Below are positions 29,726 to 44,966 of a DNA stretch of 64,000 nt, one piece after another. How positions within the stretch are numbered: position 1 is the stretch's first letter; every line of letters begins with the position of its first letter. Position numbers and translations under genes: made by a program. The notes beneath the pieces were generated by a model. That model was not told where the DNA came from, ran no database searches, and saw only the letters and a list, made by a program, of their open reading frames with translations. Source of the DNA: Desulfomonilia bacterium (GTDB lineage Bacteria > Desulfobacterota > Desulfomonilia > UBA1062). The stretch covers positions 1 to 64,000 of the forward strand of contig JBEKDT010000012.1 in NCBI GenBank assembly GCA_050014195.1, written 5' to 3'.

Positions 29726-29917
29726 TAAGAGGAGGTTAAAACTTTATTGCTTAATATTTTGATGCATTCCCGAGGAAAAGGATGCATGTCAAGAAAAGAC
29801 ACTATATAATGACAATCTGTGAAATTCCTGGACTAAGAAACACTTTTGCGTATTATTCTATGAATTGAAGGAAGAAAGAAATAATCCACCCATGAAATGA
29901 ATTGTATGAGGAGTGTT

Positions 29918-32284
29918 ATGAAGAGAATTCTGTTCATGCTCATGGTAACCATGCTGGCGCTGGTCATCATACTGATATGCTCAACCTTTCATAATCGTAA
30001 AGACGTTTATGCAGAGAAGACCCTCACACAGAATAGAGAAAACATTAGCTCGGTGAGTTGCAGGCAGTGCCATGCCGAGTTCTACGCTGTATGGTCCCAG
30101 TCTCTTCACGGCCTTGCCATACAGCCGTACTCTCAGGAGTTTGCCTTGAGCAAGCTTTCCCCACAGGCAAAGGATATCAGAATCGGCGGATATGGTTACC
30201 AGGCCGATATAAAGGGTAGGGAAGGTTATGTGATCGAAAAGGGTAACTTGCCTTGGAACAGCTCAAGATATCGAATCGATCACGTGCTTGGAGGAAAGAA
30301 TATATTTTATTTCCTTACGTTTTTAGAGGAGAGGAGGTTTCAGATCCTGCCGCTGGCTTACGATGTACATAAGAAGGAATGGGTCGATACGGCTTCCAGC
30401 GGGATCAGACACGCAAGAGGGAAACCGGGGAACTGGAAGGAACCGGGGTATACCTTCAACACTTCATGTTCCAGCTGCCATGCAGGCCAATATTCAATGA
30501 ACTACGATCTTAAGAACAATACATACGGCACAGTTTTGTTTGAGCAGGGCATTAACTGCGAGTCGTGCCATGGCCCGGTAAACGAACATAGCATGATCTT
30601 CCTGAAGGCTGCGGAATACAGTACCGTTCCCGAAGACCGGAAGATCATCAGCAACAAGAAATTTACTTCGGCTCAAATCAACTCAACATGCGCATCATGT
30701 CATTCCAAGATGGTTCCCATTACCAACTCCTTTACACCAGGCGAAAACTTCTTTGACCATTACGACCTGGCGACGCTCGAAGACCCCGGTTTTTCTTCCG
30801 ACGGATGCAATCTGGCCGACAATCACACCTATACCCGCTGGCTCATGAGCCCCTGTGTCAAATCCGGCCGGCTCGATTGCCTCAGGTGCCATACCAACGG
30901 CGGCGGCTACCGGTTTACCGACAGTGCCAAGGCCAATGATGCCTGCCTGCCATGCCATGCAAAACGTATTCAGGACACAAGCGCGCATACCCACCACAAA
31001 CCCGGCAGTCCCGGCAGCTTGTGCATCTCATGCCACATGCCTAAGACGGGATTTGCCCGCATGCAGAGCACCGACCATTCCATGCTGCCCCCGGTTCCTG
31101 CCGCCACGTTAGCCTTCAAGTCTCCAAACGCCTGTACCATTTGTCATGCGGACAAGGATGCCGCCTGGGCAGATAACACTGTTAGGCTATGGCACAAGGA
31201 TGATTATCAGGCCCCATTCCTTAAACGTGCAGCACTTATTGAAGCAGGGCGCAGGCGTGATTGGAGCAAGCTTTTTGATATGCTCGCATACATACAGAGC
31301 AAGGATCATGATGATGTGATTGCCTGCTCGCTGCTTCGGATGCTTAAGACATGCCCTGATATGAATAAGGTCCCTGTATTCATCGAGGCCCTTGACGACC
31401 CCTCAGGGCTTATCCGCTCGGCAGCGGCAGAGGGGCTTAGAGATGTGTCGACATCAAAGGCAATCAAGGCCTTGCTTGCAGCAACGGATGACCCGATAAG
31501 ACTTGTACGCATCAAGGCTGCTTCCGTATTGGCCAGGTATTCCACACAGAAACTCACTGAACCCGAGGCAAAGAGTCTTGAGCGGGTAACAGGTGAATAC
31601 CTTACCTCATTGCTGGTTCATCCGGATCTGTGGCAATCTCATTACAATATGGGTAATTACTTCCTTGACCGGGGGGAGAACAAGGATGCCCTTTTGGCAT
31701 ATAAGACAGCCATACGGATTGAGCCCGGCGCCACGGCCCCTTATGTTCATTCATCCATTGCCTATGCACGGCTCCATGATGTGTCTGAGGCCGAAGCATC
31801 TTTGAACAAGGCACTTAAGATTGACCCGAACAATGCGGACGCCTATTTCAACTTAGGGCTCTTGAAGATTGAGCAGGATGATATAAAGACGGCCGAAGAG
31901 GATCTCAGGACCGCGTTGAATGATGACCCGACCATGGCTGCAGCCGCATACAACTTGAGTATCATACTCTCAAAGGACAGATTGAAGGAGGCCGTCGCAT
32001 GGAGCAAAAAGGCTTACCTGATGCAGCCTGAGGTGAAATACGGCTACAGCCTGGCATCCTTTTTGAAACAAGACGGCAACTGGGACGAGGCCCTAGATGT
32101 GTTGAGACAGGTAGTTGCTTCAGACAGGACATTTGGCGATGCATACCTGCTCATGGGTGAGATCTATGAAGAGCGGGGAAAGAAAAGGGATGCAGCGGCT
32201 GTGTACCGGCAGGGGCTCGCAGTCGAAGAACTTCTGAAGAAAGACCGCAATCGGCTGGAGAGAAAGCTCGAATCCTTGCAATGA
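29918..32284 (+). CDS. Octaheme cytochrome c with HEAT and TPR repeats
   Basis: Eight CxxCH motifs, N-terminal signal/TM, HEAT and TPR repeats. Confidence 0.88.
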   Translation: MKRILFMLMVTMLALVIILICSTFHNRKDVYAEKTLTQNRENISSVSCRQCHAEFYAVWSQSLHGLAIQPYSQEFALSKLSPQAKDIRIGGYGYQADIKGREGYVIEKGNLPWNSSRYRIDHVLGGKNIFYFLTFLEERRFQILPLAYDVHKKEWVDTASSGIRHARGKPGNWKEPGYTFNTSCSSCHAGQYSMNYDLKNNTYGTVLFEQGINCESCHGPVNEHSMIFLKAAEYSTVPEDRKIISNKKFTSAQINSTCASCHSKMVPITNSFTPGENFFDHYDLATLEDPGFSSDGCNLADNHTYTRWLMSPCVKSGRLDCLRCHTNGGGYRFTDSAKANDACLPCHAKRIQDTSAHTHHKPGSPGSLCISCHMPKTGFARMQSTDHSMLPPVPAATLAFKSPNACTICHADKDAAWADNTVRLWHKDDYQAPFLKRAALIEAGRRRDWSKLFDMLAYIQSKDHDDVIACSLLRMLKTCPDMNKVPVFIEALDDPSGLIRSAAAEGLRDVSTSKAIKALLAATDDPIRLVRIKAASVLARYSTQKLTEPEAKSLERVTGEYLTSLLVHPDLWQSHYNMGNYFLDRGENKDALLAYKTAIRIEPGATAPYVHSSIAYARLHDVSEAEASLNKALKIDPNNADAYFNLGLLKIEQDDIKTAEEDLRTALNDDPTMAAAAYNLSIILSKDRLKEAVAWSKKAYLMQPEVKYGYSLASFLKQDGNWDEALDVLRQVVASDRTFGDAYLLMGEIYEERGKKRDAAAVYRQGLAVEELLKKDRNRLERKLESLQ

Positions 32285-36391: not shown

Positions 36392-37063
36392 GTGAAACGC
36401 AGCACCCTCGGTTTACGGAAGAATCTCAAGGAACTCAAGCGCAGGGAGGCCATAATCTCCTCGGCCATACAGGTCTTCTCTGCCAAGGGATATGAGAGGG
36501 CCACCATGGATGACATTGCTGCAGATACCGGGCTCAGTAAGGCATTGATCTACTGGTACTGGGAAAACAAGGCTGCGTTATTCTCTGAGCTGGTTGACCG
36601 GTGCATGATACCCTACTGCCATCTCCTGCAGAAGACCATCGACTCCCCTGATCCGTTTGGAGAGAAGCTCACCTTGTTCCTGACGGATTTCACACGGCTC
36701 TTCAGAGATAATGATGCCTTGAACAAGCTGGTGCATTTCGGCTCACTCCATTCCCATCCGGTAAATGAACAGGAGAATTTCAGCGAGAAGGCGAACGCCT
36801 ATTACCAAAGGGTCCAGGACTTGCTCCATGAGTTGCTCAGCCAGGGTGTCAAACAGGGCTATTTTAAGGTCGACCTGGACAAAAAGGCGCTATCCTTTTT
36901 CCTCCTGCTGGCTGTGGAAGGATACATCTACATGTCCATGCTGGAAGAGAGGATGCCGGTTGAGAGGGCCCTGATAGACTTGGCCCGGAATATCATATTC
37001 CCGGCTGTCATTCGTAAAGATGATAACAGAACAGGCTTCAACAACTTGTTTTCTTGTAGATGA
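36392..37063 (+). CDS. TetR/AcrR-family regulator
   Basis: GYERATMDDIA...SKALIYWYWENK HTH. Confidence 0.92.
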   Translation: MKRSTLGLRKNLKELKRREAIISSAIQVFSAKGYERATMDDIAADTGLSKALIYWYWENKAALFSELVDRCMIPYCHLLQKTIDSPDPFGEKLTLFLTDFTRLFRDNDALNKLVHFGSLHSHPVNEQENFSEKANAYYQRVQDLLHELLSQGVKQGYFKVDLDKKALSFFLLLAVEGYIYMSMLEERMPVERALIDLARNIIFPAVIRKDDNRTGFNNLFSCR

Positions 37064-37155: not shown

Positions 37156-37851
37156 ATGGAATCCCAGGATAAAGGTGTGTTCGATAGATTTCAGGAGATC
37201 TTCTTTACTTTTCAAATCGATGAGATCATCAAGCATGCGGATGATCTTATCGGCTCTCATGTATCCCCGCAGGGTTTCCTTACTGTATGCCAACAGTGCA
37301 TGGACGTTGTCGGGAAGAGGTTTGAGGCAGGTGAATACTTCCTCCCGGAGCTGATTGTTGCAGGGGAGGTCTTCAAGCTGTTGAGCCTAAAGATACGACC
37401 ATTTCTCAAGACATATGATACCCTCGGCTCGAGCGGAAGCATTGTGGTCGGCACACCTAGGGGCGATATACACAGCCTCGGGAAGGACATCTTCTGTATG
37501 CTGGCCGAGGCTGTAGGGTTTAGGGTCCATAACCTGGGGGAAGATGTGCCGCCTGATGCCTTTATCGCCAAGGCAAGAGAAACAGATGCCAGGATTATAG
37601 GCATGTCTGCGCTCATTACGACTGCATACTCATCCATGCAGGAAGTCATCCGGCAGCTCGAAAAAGACGGGCTTCGAGACCGGGTCAAGGTCGTGATCGG
37701 GGGCGGTGCCACCACAAAAGAACTCGCTCAGAAGCTGGGCGCAGATGCACAAACATGGGATGCCTATGAAGGGATCAGGATCATAGAGTCGTTCCTTTCT
37801 CAAGAAGCCTCTGATGTGAAAATCGCCTCTGAAGGGGGAAAGCTCGGGTGA
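37156..37851 (+). CDS. Methyltransferase cognate corrinoid protein
   Basis: GEYFLPEL cap domain, DIHSLG (DxHxxG), GMSALIT, IGG. Confidence 0.92.
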   Translation: MESQDKGVFDRFQEIFFTFQIDEIIKHADDLIGSHVSPQGFLTVCQQCMDVVGKRFEAGEYFLPELIVAGEVFKLLSLKIRPFLKTYDTLGSSGSIVVGTPRGDIHSLGKDIFCMLAEAVGFRVHNLGEDVPPDAFIAKARETDARIIGMSALITTAYSSMQEVIRQLEKDGLRDRVKVVIGGGATTKELAQKLGADAQTWDAYEGIRIIESFLSQEASDVKIASEGGKLG

Positions 37852-39044
37852 GGGAGCAGAAAATATTTAAGAGGGATCGACTGAGCGCTGATCAAAGGGT
37901 CAATGCTGTTGTGCGCTGCGAAAAGCCTGACCGGGTTCCGCTTTCTCTCATGATCTACTACTATGCCCCGTTTCACACGGGCATGGACATGGGGACGTAC
38001 CTGAAGCGGCCCAAGGCCTACATGTCGGCGATGCACCAGGTGTTTGAAGATATCGGGCCCTGGGACATATATTACAACATCAATCCTTTCTCGAGGTTGA
38101 TGTACAGCTATGTCATGATGATGAGGTCCCTGTGGCCCGGGATAGAGCTTCCTCGCGGCGGGGTGGTACAGATCGAGGAGATAGAATATATGACGCCTGA
38201 AGACTACGATGATATCCTCAGGTCCGACTCATGGTGGTCAACCAAGCTCGGCGATACCCTGTTCCGACTCAGGATGCTTCCCCGCTTCTGCCAGGAGGCA
38301 AGCGGCAGTAGCCCCATAAAGGTTTTTTCACAATTTATCGCCGGACTCTTCAGCCAGTGGCTCTTCTGGTTCAGGGATTTCTCATGGTGGAGGAAAAAGG
38401 GGGCGGCCATCCAGATCGGCTACCAGGCCGAGATGCCTTTTGACATCTTCTCGCAGGCGAGAAACGTCATCAACTTTTCAAAAGACCTCTTTGCCATACC
38501 CGACAAGATAGGCAAAGCAGCCACTAGGCTTGCCGACAGCTTCGCCAATTTCTCCATCCTGATTGCAAAGGTCATGCAGGTTCCCCGTGTGCAGCTCTAT
38601 CTTCACCGGACATCCAACAGCTTCATCTCGCCTAAGCAGTTCGAGATGCTTGCATTCCCGAGCATCGAGATCATCGTGAACCGATTGGTTGATGCAGGGA
38701 TCACCCCGATCCTCCACTGCGACGGAGACTGGCTGAAGAACCTGAAGACCCTGCGCCGCCTCCCGGCAAAGTCCTGCATACTCCAGCTCGACGGGCTGAC
38801 GGACATCTTCAAGGCCAAGGAGGAGATAGGCGAGGATATGTGTATCTTCGGCGATGTCCCCGCTGGCATGCTCGTGATGGGCTCAGAAAGCGAGGTCGAT
38901 GAGTACTGCCATCGTCTCATCACGGAGGTGGGCAGGGGAGGGGGATTCATCCTGGCCGGTGGCTGAGAGGTCCCGTCCAACTCCCGTGTGGAGAATCTCA
39001 AAGCCATGGTAGGCGCTGTGGAAAAGTACGGCTACTATGAGTAA
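37848..39044 (+). CDS. UroD/MtaA-family corrinoid methyltransferase; predicted selenoprotein (Sec373 at TGA 38964-38966), 398 aa
   Basis: PDRVP, HCDG, GGFILAGG-U-EVPSNSRVENLKAMV; readthrough restores the family C-terminus and ends 14 nt before the next ATG. Confidence 0.82.
38964..39000 (+). promoter_or_regulatory. Candidate bacterial SECIS hairpin
   Basis: TGAGA...CTCC-CGTGT-GGAG..TCTCA; apical loop 18 nt after UGA with GU at loop positions 2-3. Confidence 0.6.
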
Positions 39045-39058
39045 AATAAGGAGAAGGG

Positions 39059-39871
39059 ATGAAAACCGATATCATCAATGCGGTGAAGGATTTTACGGCA
39101 CAGGAGGGAGTCCTCATGGGCGTTGCGAGCGCAGAGGTGCTCAATGCAAAGGCCCCTGAAGGATTCCGCCCCGTGGACATAATGCCGAGTGCCAAGAGCG
39201 TGCTCGTCTTTGCCAAGCCTCTTCCCCTTGCCGTATTCCTTGTGCCCGACGGATTCAATCACATGTATTACCAGCGGTCTGCCTACATGTACTACCTCCT
39301 CATGGATAGGGTAGCAGATGGAGCGAGCATGATCCTCCAGGAAGAAGGATATCTTTCACTGCCCATCCCGTCCTACAGCCCATTACGATTTCATGAGGGC
39401 GAACCGAGGGGGGTCATCAGCCTCAAACACGCTGCAGCCGAAGCCGGGCTGGGCGCAATCGGAAGAAATACCCTGCTCATCAACCCCAAATATGGGAATA
39501 TCATGAGGCTTGGTGCTCTCATGACCGAGATGCAATGGCCGGAATACTCATCCAATGCCGATTACAGACCCTGCCCGGAAGGGTGTCATGTATGCGAACG
39601 CTCTTGTCCGATAGGCGCCATCAAAGATGGCAGGGTAAATAAGACAGCCTGCCTGGGCAGGTGCATCAAGCATGCGATGCTGCCTCCATCTTTCATGCTC
39701 CCTGTGGTTAAGAAGGCAGTTGCACACAGCAGGATGCTCACAGAGTTCATGGAGCTCATCTCGCTCAATTTCTTCGAGACCTATGGTATCGGCTGCACGG
39801 CCTGCTTGAATGCATGCCCACATTTCCCGGGTAAAAAAAGAGAGGTCAGCCGGGGTGTGAGAAATAATTAA
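39059..39871 (+). CDS. QueG/reductive-dehalogenase-like 2x[4Fe-4S] protein (short form)
   Basis: SLKHAAAEAGLGAIGRNTLLINPKYG; CPEGCHVCERSCP; CTACLNACP. Confidence 0.8.
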   Translation: MKTDIINAVKDFTAQEGVLMGVASAEVLNAKAPEGFRPVDIMPSAKSVLVFAKPLPLAVFLVPDGFNHMYYQRSAYMYYLLMDRVADGASMILQEEGYLSLPIPSYSPLRFHEGEPRGVISLKHAAAEAGLGAIGRNTLLINPKYGNIMRLGALMTEMQWPEYSSNADYRPCPEGCHVCERSCPIGAIKDGRVNKTACLGRCIKHAMLPPSFMLPVVKKAVAHSRMLTEFMELISLNFFETYGIGCTACLNACPHFPGKKREVSRGVRNN

Positions 39872-40841: not shown

Positions 40842-42011
40842 ATGCATGCCATCGAACGCGTACTCAACGCATTGGAAGGGAAGCCGACCGACAGGGTCCC
40901 CACCTTCTGTGCCATGGTTGAAGACAGGACCTTCAACGAGGTGCTCGGAAAACCGCTCATATCCCAGGAGACACTGTTGAAAAACCCCGTGTCCCGATTT
41001 TTCCTCGACAGATGGGGCACAAGGTTGACGAAGCTCGTATTTCAGCCCGAGGTGAACCGTGCCCTGGAAAAGCGCATCAGGGCCCAGGTCGAGCTGGGCT
41101 TCGATGCGGTATGGGCCTTTCTCGACGAGACCTTCGTCGTGCTCGATTCGAAGACCATGGCGAGGTTCACGGGGTCCATCTTCAATCTCCAGCCGGACGG
41201 CTTTGGGAACATGACCTACATGTACCGCGGGCCGGGCATCAAGAGCCGGGAGGATTTCGAGAGCTGGCCCTACTGGCCGGATGCCGATGATGTGGCGCAC
41301 AGTTCGTACAAGTTTTTCAAGAGGATGGTTAAAAAATATGGAGATCGTTCCTGCATCATCGGCGAAGCCTCTGCATACGGTATCCAGGAAACGATCCTGT
41401 GGGCATTGGGCTTTGAGAAGATGCCTATCTGGATCAGACGTGAGAAGGATCTGATCAAGCGTTTTATCGAGAGAAACGAGGAGCTCTGCCTCAAGACCAA
41501 CATGGCCCTCATCGATGCGGGGGTGAGAGTCATCATCCAGTGTGACGACTTTTCATTCAAGAGCGGCCCCATCATGAATCCGAAGCTTATCGACGAGCTC
41601 TTCGGCCCGTCATATAAGCGCATCATCAAGGCCGTGCACGACCGTGGAGCCAAGTATGTGCTCCATTCATGCGGCGACAACACCCTGCTCTTCGACACCT
41701 TCATCTCCTGGGGGGTGGATGGGCTCCACGCCTATGAAATGACCTCCAATGTCGACATCTTCAAGGAAAAGAAGATCCATGGCGACAAGGTTACCATCAT
41801 CGGCGGGGTGGGGGTGGATTATCTGCTCACGGACCGCTCAAAGGATGAAGAGGTAGTGGAAGAGGTCAGGAAGCTCATCAAAGAGCTCGGCCCCGGCGGC
41901 AGGTTCATCATCTCCCCGGTCCACAGCCTGAGTTCCATACCGGCGCACAAACTTAAGGTTATGGTGGATGCAGCCAAACGTTATGGCAGCTATCCCATAT
42001 CAATATCCTAA
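40842..42011 (+). CDS. Second UroD/MtaA-family corrinoid methyltransferase
   Basis: TDRVP, HSCG, GGRFIISPVH. Confidence 0.85.
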   Translation: MHAIERVLNALEGKPTDRVPTFCAMVEDRTFNEVLGKPLISQETLLKNPVSRFFLDRWGTRLTKLVFQPEVNRALEKRIRAQVELGFDAVWAFLDETFVVLDSKTMARFTGSIFNLQPDGFGNMTYMYRGPGIKSREDFESWPYWPDADDVAHSSYKFFKRMVKKYGDRSCIIGEASAYGIQETILWALGFEKMPIWIRREKDLIKRFIERNEELCLKTNMALIDAGVRVIIQCDDFSFKSGPIMNPKLIDELFGPSYKRIIKAVHDRGAKYVLHSCGDNTLLFDTFISWGVDGLHAYEMTSNVDIFKEKKIHGDKVTIIGGVGVDYLLTDRSKDEEVVEEVRKLIKELGPGGRFIISPVHSLSSIPAHKLKVMVDAAKRYGSYPISIS

Positions 42012-42035: not shown

Positions 42036-42677
42036 ATGAAGGAATCGATCCTGGCGGTACGCAAGGCCATTGACGAACTCGACATCGACGGGATCAGCAA
42101 GCTCGTAAGCCGATGCCTGGAGGAAGGTCTTTCCCCGGAAGAGGTCATCCAGGAGGGCGTCAGCAAGGGGCTTGAGATCGTGGGGGGCAAGTTCGAGGCC
42201 GGTGAATATTTCCTGGCGGATCTCATCATGGCCGGAGAGGTCGTGAAAGAGGCCATGCCCATCCTCAAGGAGAAGATGAACCCGGGCGAGAGCAACAGCA
42301 GGGGCAAGGTCATCCTCGCCACGGTGGCAGGGGACATCCATGAAATCGGCAAGAACATCGTGGGCATGATCCTGTCCGCCAATGGATACGAGGTGATCGA
42401 CCTGGGTGTGGATGTGCCGGCAGAGAAAATCATGGACACTGCAAAAACCACCGGGGCACGGTTCATCGGGCTCTCAGCCCTGCTCACCACCATGGTAGGC
42501 AGCATAAAGGAGGTGGTAGAGTCATCCAAGGCCGCAGGCCTGCGCAACAAACTAAGAATTGTCATCGGCGGCGCCTGCACATCAAAGGACCTGTGCAAGG
42601 AGATGGGGGCTGATGCCTATGGAGAGACCGCCATCGATGCCTTGAGGATCTTCAACGGATTTACTGCAAGTACCTGA
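42036..42677 (+). CDS. Methyltransferase cognate corrinoid protein
   Basis: GEYFLADL, GDIHEIGKNIV, SALLTT. Confidence 0.93.
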   Translation: MKESILAVRKAIDELDIDGISKLVSRCLEEGLSPEEVIQEGVSKGLEIVGGKFEAGEYFLADLIMAGEVVKEAMPILKEKMNPGESNSRGKVILATVAGDIHEIGKNIVGMILSANGYEVIDLGVDVPAEKIMDTAKTTGARFIGLSALLTTMVGSIKEVVESSKAAGLRNKLRIVIGGACTSKDLCKEMGADAYGETAIDALRIFNGFTAST

Positions 42678-42728: not shown

Positions 42729-44240
42729 ATGAATCAGCATACCATAACCCTCATCCCTTCTGGCTCACAGCAATCGTTCCCTTCGGAGATGTTTCTCACA
42801 GAGGCGCTCCTGGACATGGGCATTGCCCTGAAAACCCCCTGCGGCGGCAAGGGCATATGCAATAAGTGCAAGGTTATGGTGGAAGGAGAACCCGCTGCAG
42901 TTCTTGCCTGCCAGACACGCATCACTAAGGATCTTAGGGTGCATGCAGAGCAAGAGGAGATCAACCGGGACATCCATATCCCTCATGTCCGTCCTGATGA
43001 TCACATATCAGTGGCCGTGGACATCGGGACCACCTCTGTGAGGATATCCCTGGTTGATACATCACGAAAGGCCTCGTTCGAGATCGCATCATTTCTTAAC
43101 CCGCAGCAGAGATTCGGACACGACGTCATCTCACGGATCGCAGCAGGCAGGGACCCATCCAAGCTACAGTCCCTACAAAACCTTATCAGAAAGGCCGTCA
43201 ATATCCGTCTCGGCTTGGTTCTTAATGTCATAGAACTCCCTGCAGGCATGATCGAACAGATCGTGTTCTCGGGCAACACCACCATGCTCTACCTGCTCTT
43301 CGGGCTCGACGTGGAGCCTCTGGGCAGGTATCCGTACACGACCCTGACAAAGGATTTTAAAGACCTCTTGGCAGAAGAGATCGGCCTTGATTGCATCGGT
43401 TCGGCACGTGTCCTTAGCCTGCCCGTGCTCAGCGCATTCATCGGCGCTGACCTCGTGGGCGGATTAACCATGTGCCATGACCTTGGCATCACCCGCAATG
43501 CCTTCTTCATTGATCTGGGCACCAACGGCGAGTTGTTCCTCCTGGACGGCAAGGGTAATCCGTATACAACCTCCTGTGCCATGGGCCCTGCCCTGGAGGG
43601 CATGAACATCACCTGGGGCATGACTGCCGATACCGGCGCCATCACCCATATTTATGCAGAAAAGGGAGGTCTCAGGTATCACATGATCGGCCGGGGCTGG
43701 CCTGTCGGCATCACCGGCACAGCGCTGGTGGACCTGATCGCCATCCTTCTGGACAATGGCATCATCGCACCGCATGGCGCCTTTTCCAATAATTCGGAGA
43801 AATATAATCTCTTGAGCCCGCTGTGCCTAAACCACAACGGAGAATCCAAAGGGCTTAAGCTCTGGGGAGATATCAGGCTCACCCAGAAGGATATCCGCAA
43901 TGTCCAGCTCGCCAAGGCGGCATCGCTGAGCGCTGCACGCTTCCTCCTGGAGGCCGCCGAGTTTGACCCGGGTGACGTCGAGCATGTGTTCATTGCAGGG
44001 GCCTTTGGCGAGAACCTTGATCTGGATCATTTCAGCAGGCTCGGCTTTATCCCTTGTTTTCCCAATGCCGCCTGCGAGTTTCTCGGCAATACGAGCTTGA
44101 AGGCCGCCCAGAAGGCCTGCTTTGACCCTGATTTCCTGAAACGTGCCGTTACACTAAGGGACAAAGCCCGGGAGGTGGTGCTCTCCGCGTTGCCAACCTT
44201 CCAGGATGTATTCATTCGATCACTCGAATTCCCGGCATAA
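42729..44240 (+). CDS. ATP-dependent reductive activator of corrinoid proteins (RACo/RamA, ASKHA)
   Basis: CGGKGICNKC 2Fe-2S, DIGTT, DVISRI, DLGTNGE, GPALEG, AGAFG. Confidence 0.92.
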   Translation: MNQHTITLIPSGSQQSFPSEMFLTEALLDMGIALKTPCGGKGICNKCKVMVEGEPAAVLACQTRITKDLRVHAEQEEINRDIHIPHVRPDDHISVAVDIGTTSVRISLVDTSRKASFEIASFLNPQQRFGHDVISRIAAGRDPSKLQSLQNLIRKAVNIRLGLVLNVIELPAGMIEQIVFSGNTTMLYLLFGLDVEPLGRYPYTTLTKDFKDLLAEEIGLDCIGSARVLSLPVLSAFIGADLVGGLTMCHDLGITRNAFFIDLGTNGELFLLDGKGNPYTTSCAMGPALEGMNITWGMTADTGAITHIYAEKGGLRYHMIGRGWPVGITGTALVDLIAILLDNGIIAPHGAFSNNSEKYNLLSPLCLNHNGESKGLKLWGDIRLTQKDIRNVQLAKAASLSAARFLLEAAEFDPGDVEHVFIAGAFGENLDLDHFSRLGFIPCFPNAACEFLGNTSLKAAQKACFDPDFLKRAVTLRDKAREVVLSALPTFQDVFIRSLEFPA

Positions 44241-44303: not shown

Positions 44304-44966
44304 ATGGACCGGATCATCTTAGACGATATACCCTTTGAGGTGGATGAGAAAGGGCTTGTAGAGCTCTTAAGGATTCAACCCGGCTCCCGCAGCGCAGCCG
44401 AGCTCTCGAAGATCCTGGGAGAGGCCCGCTTGGTTGCCAGGCCAAAGGCGGCCTTTGCCGCGGCTGCTGCGCATATGATTGAAGAGGGAACCATAGAGAT
44501 CGGTGGAGTACATTTCACCAGCAGGCTGCTGTGCATAAACCTGGACAAGGCGGGCATTGTCTTTCCGTTTGTAGCCACATGCGGGAGCGAGCTCGAGCAG
44601 TGGTCACGGACCATGAGCGGCATGCTGCATTCCTTCTGGGCCGATTCCATCATGCTCATGGCATTGGGCTGTGCCATGACCTTCCTTGAAACATGCCTGA
44701 AGAAGAGGGTAGGCGACGGGGCATCCCTTTCGTCCATGAACCCGGGCTCGCTTACGGACTGGCCGCTCACGGAACAGGCAGCACTCTTCTCCCTTTTGGG
44801 AGATAGTGCCAAGGCAATCGGCACCAGGCTCACCGAGAAGATGGTCATTCAGCCTCTTAAATCTGTTTCAGGCATACAGTTTGTCTCGGAGGAGGGATTT
44901 GTGAACTGTTCTCTATGCCCGAGGCAGGGCTGTCCATCCCGCAGGGCGCCGTATGATGCAAAATAA
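44304..44966 (+). CDS. B12-dependent methionine synthase activation-domain-like protein
   Basis: ATCG, NPGSLTDWPLTEQ, PLKSVSG, CSLC...CPSR. Confidence 0.8.
   Translation: MDRIILDDIPFEVDEKGLVELLRIQPGSRSAAELSKILGEARLVARPKAAFAAAAAHMIEEGTIEIGGVHFTSRLLCINLDKAGIVFPFVATCGSELEQWSRTMSGMLHSFWADSIMLMALGCAMTFLETCLKKRVGDGASLSSMNPGSLTDWPLTEQAALFSLLGDSAKAIGTRLTEKMVIQPLKSVSGIQFVSEEGFVNCSLCPRQGCPSRRAPYDAK

Follow-up and report, generated by a model that had tools for sequence, protein, structure and literature searches.

A Probable Selenocysteine-Containing Corrinoid Methyltransferase of the URO-D/MtaA Superfamily in a Desulfomonilia Bacterium

Introduction

The first 64,000 nucleotides (nt) of contig JBEKDT010000012.1 from a Desulfomonilia bacterium (assembly GCA_050014195.1), hereafter the window, contain a gene for a methyltransferase of the URO-D/MtaA superfamily that starts at position 37848 and reaches an in-frame TGA at 38964-38966. 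The same frame is open for a further 25 codons. The locus thus raises the question of whether this TGA terminates the protein or is read as selenocysteine (Sec), and in the latter case what an enzyme of this type would use selenium for. An original prediction, made by a model from the nucleotide sequence, held that the gene encodes a hidden selenoprotein with Sec in a metal site, and suspected that the family might be new. The analysis described here indicates that the gene at 37848-39044 very probably encodes a 398-residue corrinoid methyltransferase selenoprotein in which UGA codon 373 is read as Sec. All positions refer to the window, and the selenoprotein gene and the genes around it that are described below are on its forward strand.

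The In-Frame TGA and the Cysteine Column

The open reading frame (ORF) at 37848-38966 begins with GTG and overlaps the end of the preceding gene, with its TGA stop, by 4 nt. The part of the gene preceding the putative Sec codon (37848-38963) comprises 372 codons and encodes a corrinoid methyltransferase of the URO-D/MtaA superfamily with an H290-C291-D292 motif. The residues GGGFILAGG are found directly before the TGA at 38964-38966, which is the predicted codon for Sec373. Past the TGA the frame reads EVPSNSRVENLKAMVGAVEKYGYYE, that is 25 codons, and ends with a TAA at 39042-39044, so that the tail including its stop occupies 38967-39044. The product is 372 residues long if the ORF is annotated by its first stop and 398 residues if the TGA, codon 373, is read through. 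A spacer of 14 nt (39045-39058) separates the TAA from the ATG at 39059, with which the following gene begins. The Pfam URO-D domain (PF01208) matches residues 193-394 of the read-through product with 93.5 bits (cut-off 23.9), and the domain thus crosses the TGA. When the read-through protein was compared with its own genome using tblastn, residues 256-397 aligned with positions 41562-41993, within a paralogous gene starting at 40842, and this alignment also spans the TGA column. The original prediction had described the same stop after GGFILAGG, the same continuation to the TAA, the likeness of the tail to this paralogue and the 14-nt gap, and all of these stand.

The TGA is also found in a genome record with 96% identity (L044), in a metagenome contig with 93% identity (L080) and in an identical contig (L081). 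Contigs from three sequencing runs that are not flagged as possible sources of the assembly (X20-X22) span 38964-38966 and display zero differences there, and a near-identical contig from a fourth run (X23), possibly the source itself, is likewise unchanged at these positions. One of the covering contigs represents a variant strain that shows 15 differences outside the TGA in 401 compared bases; it keeps the TGA, and its tail carries three synonymous changes and one Glu-to-Lys substitution. With the TGA kept across independent assemblies and relatives, neither a sequencing error nor an isolated nonsense mutation can account for it, and what the original prediction had named as refuting, a TGC or TGT at this site or an isolated mutation, was not found on the covering contigs.

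A protein search identified 428 relatives in a large protein collection, and the best 120 were aligned with the query to give 121 family rows. Among these best 120 of the 428, 100 have a Cys at the column corresponding to the TGA, 19 end exactly before it, and one is a fragment that stops earlier. All rows reaching the column have Cys there (101 of 101, when the U of the query itself is read as C). The 19 clusters that terminate at ...GG just before the column are 369-372 residues long; five of them originate from NCBI records, one of which is named 'uroporphyrinogen decarboxylase family protein'. Public records deposit the TGA-form proteins as truncated products, about 25 residues short.

At the DNA level, loci were pooled from four sources: 401 sampled genomes of the phylum, a pattern scan in which each species was represented by one genome (36 loci), a scan of metagenomes (67 loci) and 301 genomes sampled at the order level around a genome with the TGA form. 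The 88 distinct regions following the codon divide into 14 with TGA and 74 with TGC or TGT, which is the mixture of Cys and TGA at one column that the original prediction had proposed to look for among homologues. An open and conserved in-frame tail follows the TGA in every one of the 14 TGA loci. TGA forms were found in 12 genomes, including that of the window, in three further metagenome contigs and in one contig identical to the window. Nine genomes of the order-level sample encode a close homologue, six with TGA and three with Cys. In the phylum sample the TGA form was found nowhere except in the window's own genome; the other TGA forms came from the pattern-based scans and the order-level sample. 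As judged by tblastn, the window's genome lacks any further close copy of the gene.

Phylogeny of the TGA Forms

A maximum-likelihood tree was built from 77 non-identical protein sequences deduced from the loci, including 12 TGA rows, with the Sec column read as C; the tree is unrooted. The 12 TGA rows fall into two distinct clades, both nested among Cys forms, and the Shimodaira-Hasegawa-like approximate likelihood ratio test gives 100% support to each. Clade A consists of the window sequence, L044 and L080. Its sister is a Cys clade of records naming Syntrophales and Smithella, and the joint support is 99%. Clade B comprises nine rows from records naming Desulfosudaceae, Desulfobacterales and Thermodesulfobacteriota. 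In four of the five clade B genomes searched, the TGA form was the sole match at E<=1e-30. A tree with a single TGA clade was rejected, as the best tree under that constraint was 64 log-likelihood units worse (approximately unbiased test, p 1.0e-6). Because all deeper branches carry Cys (the root was not inferred), two switches from Cys to Sec constitute the simplest reading of the tree, and by that reading Sec would have been acquired twice, independently, at the same predicted metal-ligand residue. A repeated change from Cys to Sec at one residue speaks for a central catalytic role of this residue and for a benefit of selenium in this chemistry.

Two further proteins of 370 residues, P0085 and P0089, end with ...GGFILGGG right before the Cys/Sec column. 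With 61-66% identity to clade B and 60-64% to Cys forms, they are about equally far from both and may represent a third TGA lineage.

Translation and Fold of the Tail

When it comes to the tail, the ratio of nonsynonymous to synonymous differences (pN/pS) was calculated by the Nei-Gojobori method over the 24 codons after the TGA. In clade B (nine sequences, 77-95% identical in protein) it is 0.144 for the tail and 0.208 for the gene body, and in the three sequences of clade A the corresponding values are 0.115 and 0.128. If the same bases are read in the other two frames, the ratio rises to 1.87-1.97; these values cover three reads, the +1 frame of clade A not being computable. The tail is under purifying selection in the frame of the gene, that is, it is translated.

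The read-through protein was modeled with AlphaFold2 using an alignment of 34 rows (predicted local distance difference test score 94.0, predicted template modeling score 0.92). The model displays a strand at 367-370, a loop containing residue 373 and a helix at 381-394. In the model the tail thus supplies the last helix of the barrel. His290 and Asp292 are placed at the end of strand 286-292, while residue 373 comes after the last β-strand. The top Foldseek matches of the model are UroD structures and MtaA (probability 1.00, TM-scores 0.58-0.72). Together with the Pfam match above the gathering threshold, the model identifies the predicted read-through protein as a URO-D-type TIM barrel.

The Selenocysteine Machinery

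The genome to which the window belongs has a completeness estimate of 100% and encodes the components needed for Sec incorporation, for which the original prediction had suggested a search. SelA (524.6 bits), SelB (332.2 bits), SelD (381.1 bits) and tRNA-Sec (72.9 bits) all score above their curated cut-offs. The selD gene itself carries one in-frame TGA, and an in-frame TGA is also found in an fdhA-like gene of the same genome. A genome-wide reassignment of TGA is ruled out, as TGA terminates 8 of the 18 ORFs neighboring the selenoprotein gene. In the other TGA-form genomes selA was found above the cut-off in eight of nine, while the ninth, a 2.2-Mb assembly, has a C-terminal fragment only. 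All five clade B genomes tested encode a selD with an in-frame TGA.

The Candidate SECIS Element

In the proposed mechanism UGA codon 373 would be decoded as Sec by SelA, SelB, SelD and tRNA-Sec, guided by a small hairpin located right after the UGA. The candidate bacterial selenocysteine insertion sequence (bSECIS; SECIS in general) is found at 38964-39000. Its upper stem CUCC/GGAG and loop CGUGU form a hairpin at 38981-38993, with stem arms at 38981-38984 and 38990-38993 and the loop at 38985-38989, and its lower stem is UGAGA/UCUCA (or GAGGU/AUCUC). The loop starts 18 nt after the UGA, and if the U of the UGA is taken as nt 1, a G and a U occupy nt 23-24. In the RNAfold structure UGAGA and UCUCA form a lower stem of 5 bp beneath the upper stem of 4 bp, and the 40-nt fold has an energy of -8.3 kcal/mol. 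The hairpin, lower stem and spacing put forward in the original prediction were thus recovered both by position and by folding.

The published bSECIS model requires an upper stem of 4-16 bp and a loop of 3-9 nt with a G followed by G or U in its first positions (PMC13188914). The distance from UGA to loop should be 16-37 nt, and the minimum free energy at most -7.5 kcal/mol (PMC13188914). The window hairpin satisfies all four published constraints. A home-made scan based on these limits, as distinct from bSECISearch itself, was passed by all 14 TGA regions, by 12 of the 74 Cys regions and by 83 of the 560 shuffled sequences. In the window's own genome, the fdhA-like gene (L148, contig 14) has a strong hairpin after its TGA with an 8-bp stem and a GGUCU loop at nt 22-26, the same positions as the loop in the window, and selD (L010, contig 2) has a strong hairpin after its TGA with a GGU loop at nt 24-26. 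The hairpin of clade B is different. It has the form AACC[G/A]UC-CG[U/G]GC-GAUGGUU with a spacing of 33 nt, which places it 15 nt further downstream than that of the window, and it is kept in ten of ten aligned sequences.

In 11 clade B sequences the synonymous pair difference at codons +5 to +15 after the TGA is 0.133, compared with a mean of 0.372, and this is the lowest of 125 windows. Three Cys clades lack such a dip in the same window (0.386 vs 0.400, 0.513 vs 0.489, and 0.524 vs 0.576). A constraint at the RNA level just after the TGA is thus found in the TGA forms only. The raw minimum free energy of TGA regions is also lower (-14.3 vs -9.6 kcal/mol), which, being a comparison between kin, serves as a hint only. 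The element after the UGA is likely to function as a SECIS.

Clade B loci such as L047 display a second window of low synonymous difference at codons -105 to -95, counted from the TGA (0.151, with a gene mean of 0.394), which ties with the post-TGA window in the synonymous scan of the whole gene.

Protein Family and Predicted Metal Site

The original prediction assigned the protein to the UroD/MtaA family. This holds at the level of the superfamily, as seen from PF01208 and the fold; the protein is not, on the other hand, an orthologue of MtaA or MtbA. The NCBIfam models NF040654, NF041608 and TIGR01463 score 38.9, 31.5 and 36.2 bits, far below their cut-offs of 400, 600 and 235.4 bits, respectively, and an Asp takes the place of one of the ligands. 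The closest solved structure is CdmB (PDB 9rui), which was found with an E-value of 8.9e-22 by phmmer and 1.4e-42 over residues 17-394 by the family profile. The same profile matches MtaA (4ay7) with an E-value of 3.9e-10.

The protein most likely acts as a substrate:corrinoid methyltransferase (methyltransferase I, MTI), as judged by analogy. A gene for a corrinoid protein adjoins it upstream in Sec and Cys loci alike, and its best PDB match, CdmB, is itself an MTI. The TIM-barrel enzyme would accordingly move a methyl group from a small-molecule donor onto the corrinoid protein that the adjoining upstream gene encodes.

The alignment with MtaA places LHcdG of the family on LHICG of MtaA, which makes H290 the equivalent of the motif His and D292 that of the motif Cys, while aagCeip aligns with APGCGIA, so that residue 373 corresponds to the distal zinc-ligand Cys. 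Among the 121 family members, H290 is conserved in 120, C291 in 120 and D292 in 121. The metal site of His290, Asp292 and Sec373 suggested in the original prediction thus agrees with the MtaA ligands column by column, while metal binding as such is deduced from this agreement. In the proposed mechanism Sec373, positioned in the loop after the last β-strand, would together with His290 and Asp292 hold a catalytic zinc ion that activates the substrate.

According to a preprint, S-methyltransferases of the URO-D superfamily have His-Cys-Cys zinc sites, while in O-methyltransferases one or both Cys are replaced by Asp or Glu (PMC10418091). If this rule is applied to the His-Asp-Cys/Sec site, it faintly suggests that the substrate of the selenoprotein may carry an O-methyl group.

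We tentatively propose that in this B12-dependent methyltransferase Sec coordinates the catalytic zinc directly, a proposal that might well be right. It would make this a natural, non-redox Zn-Se site that has been selected twice independently in anaerobic Thermodesulfobacteriota, the related loci coming from records that name Desulfomonilia and Desulfosudaceae/Desulfobacterales. The likely gain would be a better activation of a poor methyl donor, for instance a methoxylated compound or a methylthio compound from peat and sediments. A different possibility is that Sec is incorporated and serves not as a zinc ligand but as a nucleophile, a transient methyl carrier or a redox partner of for instance Cys291, in a metal-free site like that of CdmB. 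CdmB is described as zinc-free and as not needing zinc (PMC13222342), and it lacks both the His and the Cys, so that the zinc assignment has to lean on the more distant MtaA alignment. Cys291 is moreover nearly invariant in the family, while MtaA has an Ile at this position, and in the majority of known selenoproteins Sec takes part in redox or nucleophilic chemistry (PMC13188914). This is nevertheless the unlikelier use of the residue, although it deserves to be kept in mind: the near-invariant His290 and Asp292 align with the zinc-motif His and Cys of MtaA and residue 373 with the third ligand, and the geometry of strand 286-292 in the model would let residues 290 and 292 face one side of the strand, with 291 on the opposite side.

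Alternative Readings of the UGA Codon

Several observations count against the selenoprotein reading or lessen its support. Most of them concern the SECIS. The candidate element of the window clade is short, with an upper stem of 4 bp and a lower stem of 5 bp, and the folding energy of the window hairpin is indistinguishable from that of shuffled sequences (z -0.58 and 0.02). Two clade B sequences give z-scores of -0.80 and -1.41, and the mean over 13 TGA regions is near 0. With z-scores this unremarkable, no thermodynamic support is claimed for the SECIS. The hairpin of clade B shows no significant covariation, since its one compensatory pair, found besides two one-sided changes, was matched by 99 of 500 shuffles, and an Rfam scan of 38900-39100 at E<=10 returned chance matches only and no SECIS family. 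As the 14 TGA regions represent two lineages, the contrast in the home-made bSECIS scan is worth about 0.15 squared. The Sec machinery was rejected as a means to discriminate between the two forms, because selA is also present in all five Cys-form genomes tested. Finally, what is known here about Sec decoding comes from sequence, alignment and a structure model.

The TGA might be a true stop, in which case the product would be a protein of 372 residues without the last helix, or the gene would be a pseudogene, and the downstream frame would be a remnant. The products of 369-372 residues listed in public records and the thermodynamically unremarkable hairpin would fit with this. However, the tail is open and under purifying selection across sequences that are only 77-95% identical in protein, the stop falls exactly on the invariant Cys column in two independent clades, the tail corresponds to the final helix of the barrel, and no other close copy of the gene exists in the genome, which together make a true stop very improbable. 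Read-through in which near-cognate or suppressor decoding inserts one of the standard amino acids, namely Cys or Trp, could draw on the weakness of the SECIS and on the identity of Sec being deduced from sequence, but it is hardly credible given the complete Sec machinery in 9 of the 10 TGA-form genomes tested, the Cys/UGA column that is the standard signature of Sec, the synonymous suppression and consensus-type hairpin found after the UGA in TGA forms only, and the common use of TGA as an ordinary stop in the window. Decoding of codon 373 as Sec is thus held to be highly probable.

Genomic Context

The selenoprotein gene belongs to a group of genes that appear to be devoted to corrinoid-dependent methyl transfer. 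A TetR-family regulator identified by Pfam (36392-37063) is a conserved upstream partner, with synteny in TGA and Cys loci. It is followed by corrinoid (B12-binding) protein 1 (37156-37851), which has matches to PF02310 and PF02607 and to corrinoid-protein models of NCBIfam below their cut-offs, and whose gene is translationally coupled to the selenoprotein gene. This core of TetR regulator, corrinoid protein and methyltransferase is kept in TGA and Cys loci alike, which fits with a regulated, self-contained module for corrinoid methyl transfer.

The gene downstream of the tail (39059-39871) encodes a 270-residue Fe-S protein that resembles QueG or a reductive dehalogenase, although the similarity is weak and all matches are below cut-off. 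Among the homologous loci examined, this gene is found in those of clade A only (window, L080, and L081) and is absent beside the others. It sits between two corrinoid-methyltransferase modules. Next follows a homocysteine S-methyltransferase-domain protein (PF02574, 39929-40822), a candidate methyl-corrinoid:thiol methyltransferase. The second URO-D-family methyltransferase, the paralogue mentioned above (40842-42011), belongs to the same operon and is 31% identical to the selenoprotein over 142 residues; it has a canonical H-x-C motif (HSC) and a His at the Sec column, and its metal site would thus be His-Cys-His-like. Domain searches further identified corrinoid protein 2 (42036-42677) and a RACo-type reductive activator of corrinoid enzymes (42729-44240). 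The last gene of the group (44304-44966) encodes a protein similar to the methionine-synthase activation domain, with a weak match to PF02965; a PF02965-like gene is the direct 3' neighbor of the methyltransferase gene in clade B, as it is in some of the Cys loci.

A different arrangement is found in L078, a record naming Candidatus Geothermincola (Actinomycetota), where two tandem Cys-form copies of the methyltransferase, at 2648 and 3966, sit downstream of two corrinoid protein genes. Elsewhere in the window, the ORF at 29897-32284 encodes a protein of 795 residues in which multihaem cytochrome c motifs are combined with HEAT repeats and a long array of tetratricopeptide repeats.

Novelty and Implications

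A review from May 2026 lists 119 prokaryotic selenoprotein families and subfamilies in its Table 1 (PMC13188914). No PF01208, MtaA/CmuA/URO-D-type or corrinoid-dependent methyltransferase is found in that table, the corrinoid-related entries of which are HgcA, a CobW-related protein and BtuF (PMC13188914). None of the selenoprotein models in NCBIfam matched the read-through protein. Full-text searches of the open literature returned no paper on a Sec-containing methyltransferase of the URO-D/MtaA type; subscription papers and supplements were outside the scope of this search, and Supplementary Table 6 of PMC8318568, which covers further putative selenoproteins, is one place that could list such a protein. 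The family is apparently uncatalogued, and the suspicion of novelty in the original prediction was borne out as far as the comparison with Table 1 goes. In its essentials this would be one more enzyme family with Sec and Cys members that relies on the usual bacterial recoding, while a Zn-Se methyltransferase site would be new, if confirmed.

If the protein is a selenoprotein, the selenoproteome gains an enzyme class, namely corrinoid-dependent methyl transfer of the URO-D/MtaA superfamily. It would also follow that the public entries are in error, being about 25 residues short and devoid of a predicted metal ligand as well as of the last helix of the barrel. The naturally occurring Cys orthologues would further serve as matched controls for the effect of a selenolate on a Lewis-acid zinc site, should Sec prove to bind zinc.

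The window stretch has been found in many metagenome runs from peat and wetlands, and none of the 24 runs listed is an RNA run. As a guess, the corrinoid module may matter for anaerobic demethylation in peat and wetlands.

Comparison with Known Systems

CdmB, the chloromethane:corrinoid MTI of Acetobacterium dehalogenans, is similar to the selenoprotein in having a URO-D-type TIM barrel and a separately encoded corrinoid protein, and the C-terminal helix motif ...ENv.AM...yG.Y is common to both. It differs in that Ser and Phe are found at the positions of His290 and Cys/Sec373. Moreover, CdmB is not a selenoprotein, and the sequence identity is low.

MtaA and MtbA (4ay7) share superfamily, fold and the aligned zinc-motif columns with the selenoprotein. 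The middle ligand is Cys in MtaA and Asp in the selenoprotein family, and while MtaA is a methyltransferase 2 (MT2) that methylates a thiol, the selenoprotein family looks like a methyltransferase 1 (MT1). To our knowledge Sec has never been reported in MtaA, which uses Cys.

The Type 1 mlp clusters display a similar gene content, as URO-D methyltransferases are encoded together with a corrinoid protein and an activase in anaerobes that mostly possess the Sec machinery, according to the accessible part of the preprint (PMC10418091). The same part describes the Mlps as MtaA-like and linked to selenium metabolism; methyl-selenium or methyl-sulfur compounds are proposed as their substrates, and their site is His-Cys-Cys, while that of the selenoprotein family is His-Asp-Cys/Sec (PMC10418091). 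The Mlps are not described there as containing Sec themselves (PMC10418091).

The closest parallels in the use of Sec are formate dehydrogenase, with a Mo/W-Sec site, and the [NiFeSe] hydrogenase, with a Ni-Sec site. They are unlike the present enzyme in that the metal here would be zinc and the reaction a non-redox methyl transfer, and we know of no natural Zn-Sec enzyme site that has been established. When it comes to the recoding, however, the likeness is close: in these enzymes too the UGA is found at the column of a metal-ligand Cys, orthologues with Cys exist, and the SECIS, a candidate element in the present gene, is located right after the UGA. The pattern of the formate dehydrogenase type is also displayed by the fdhA-like gene of the window's own genome.

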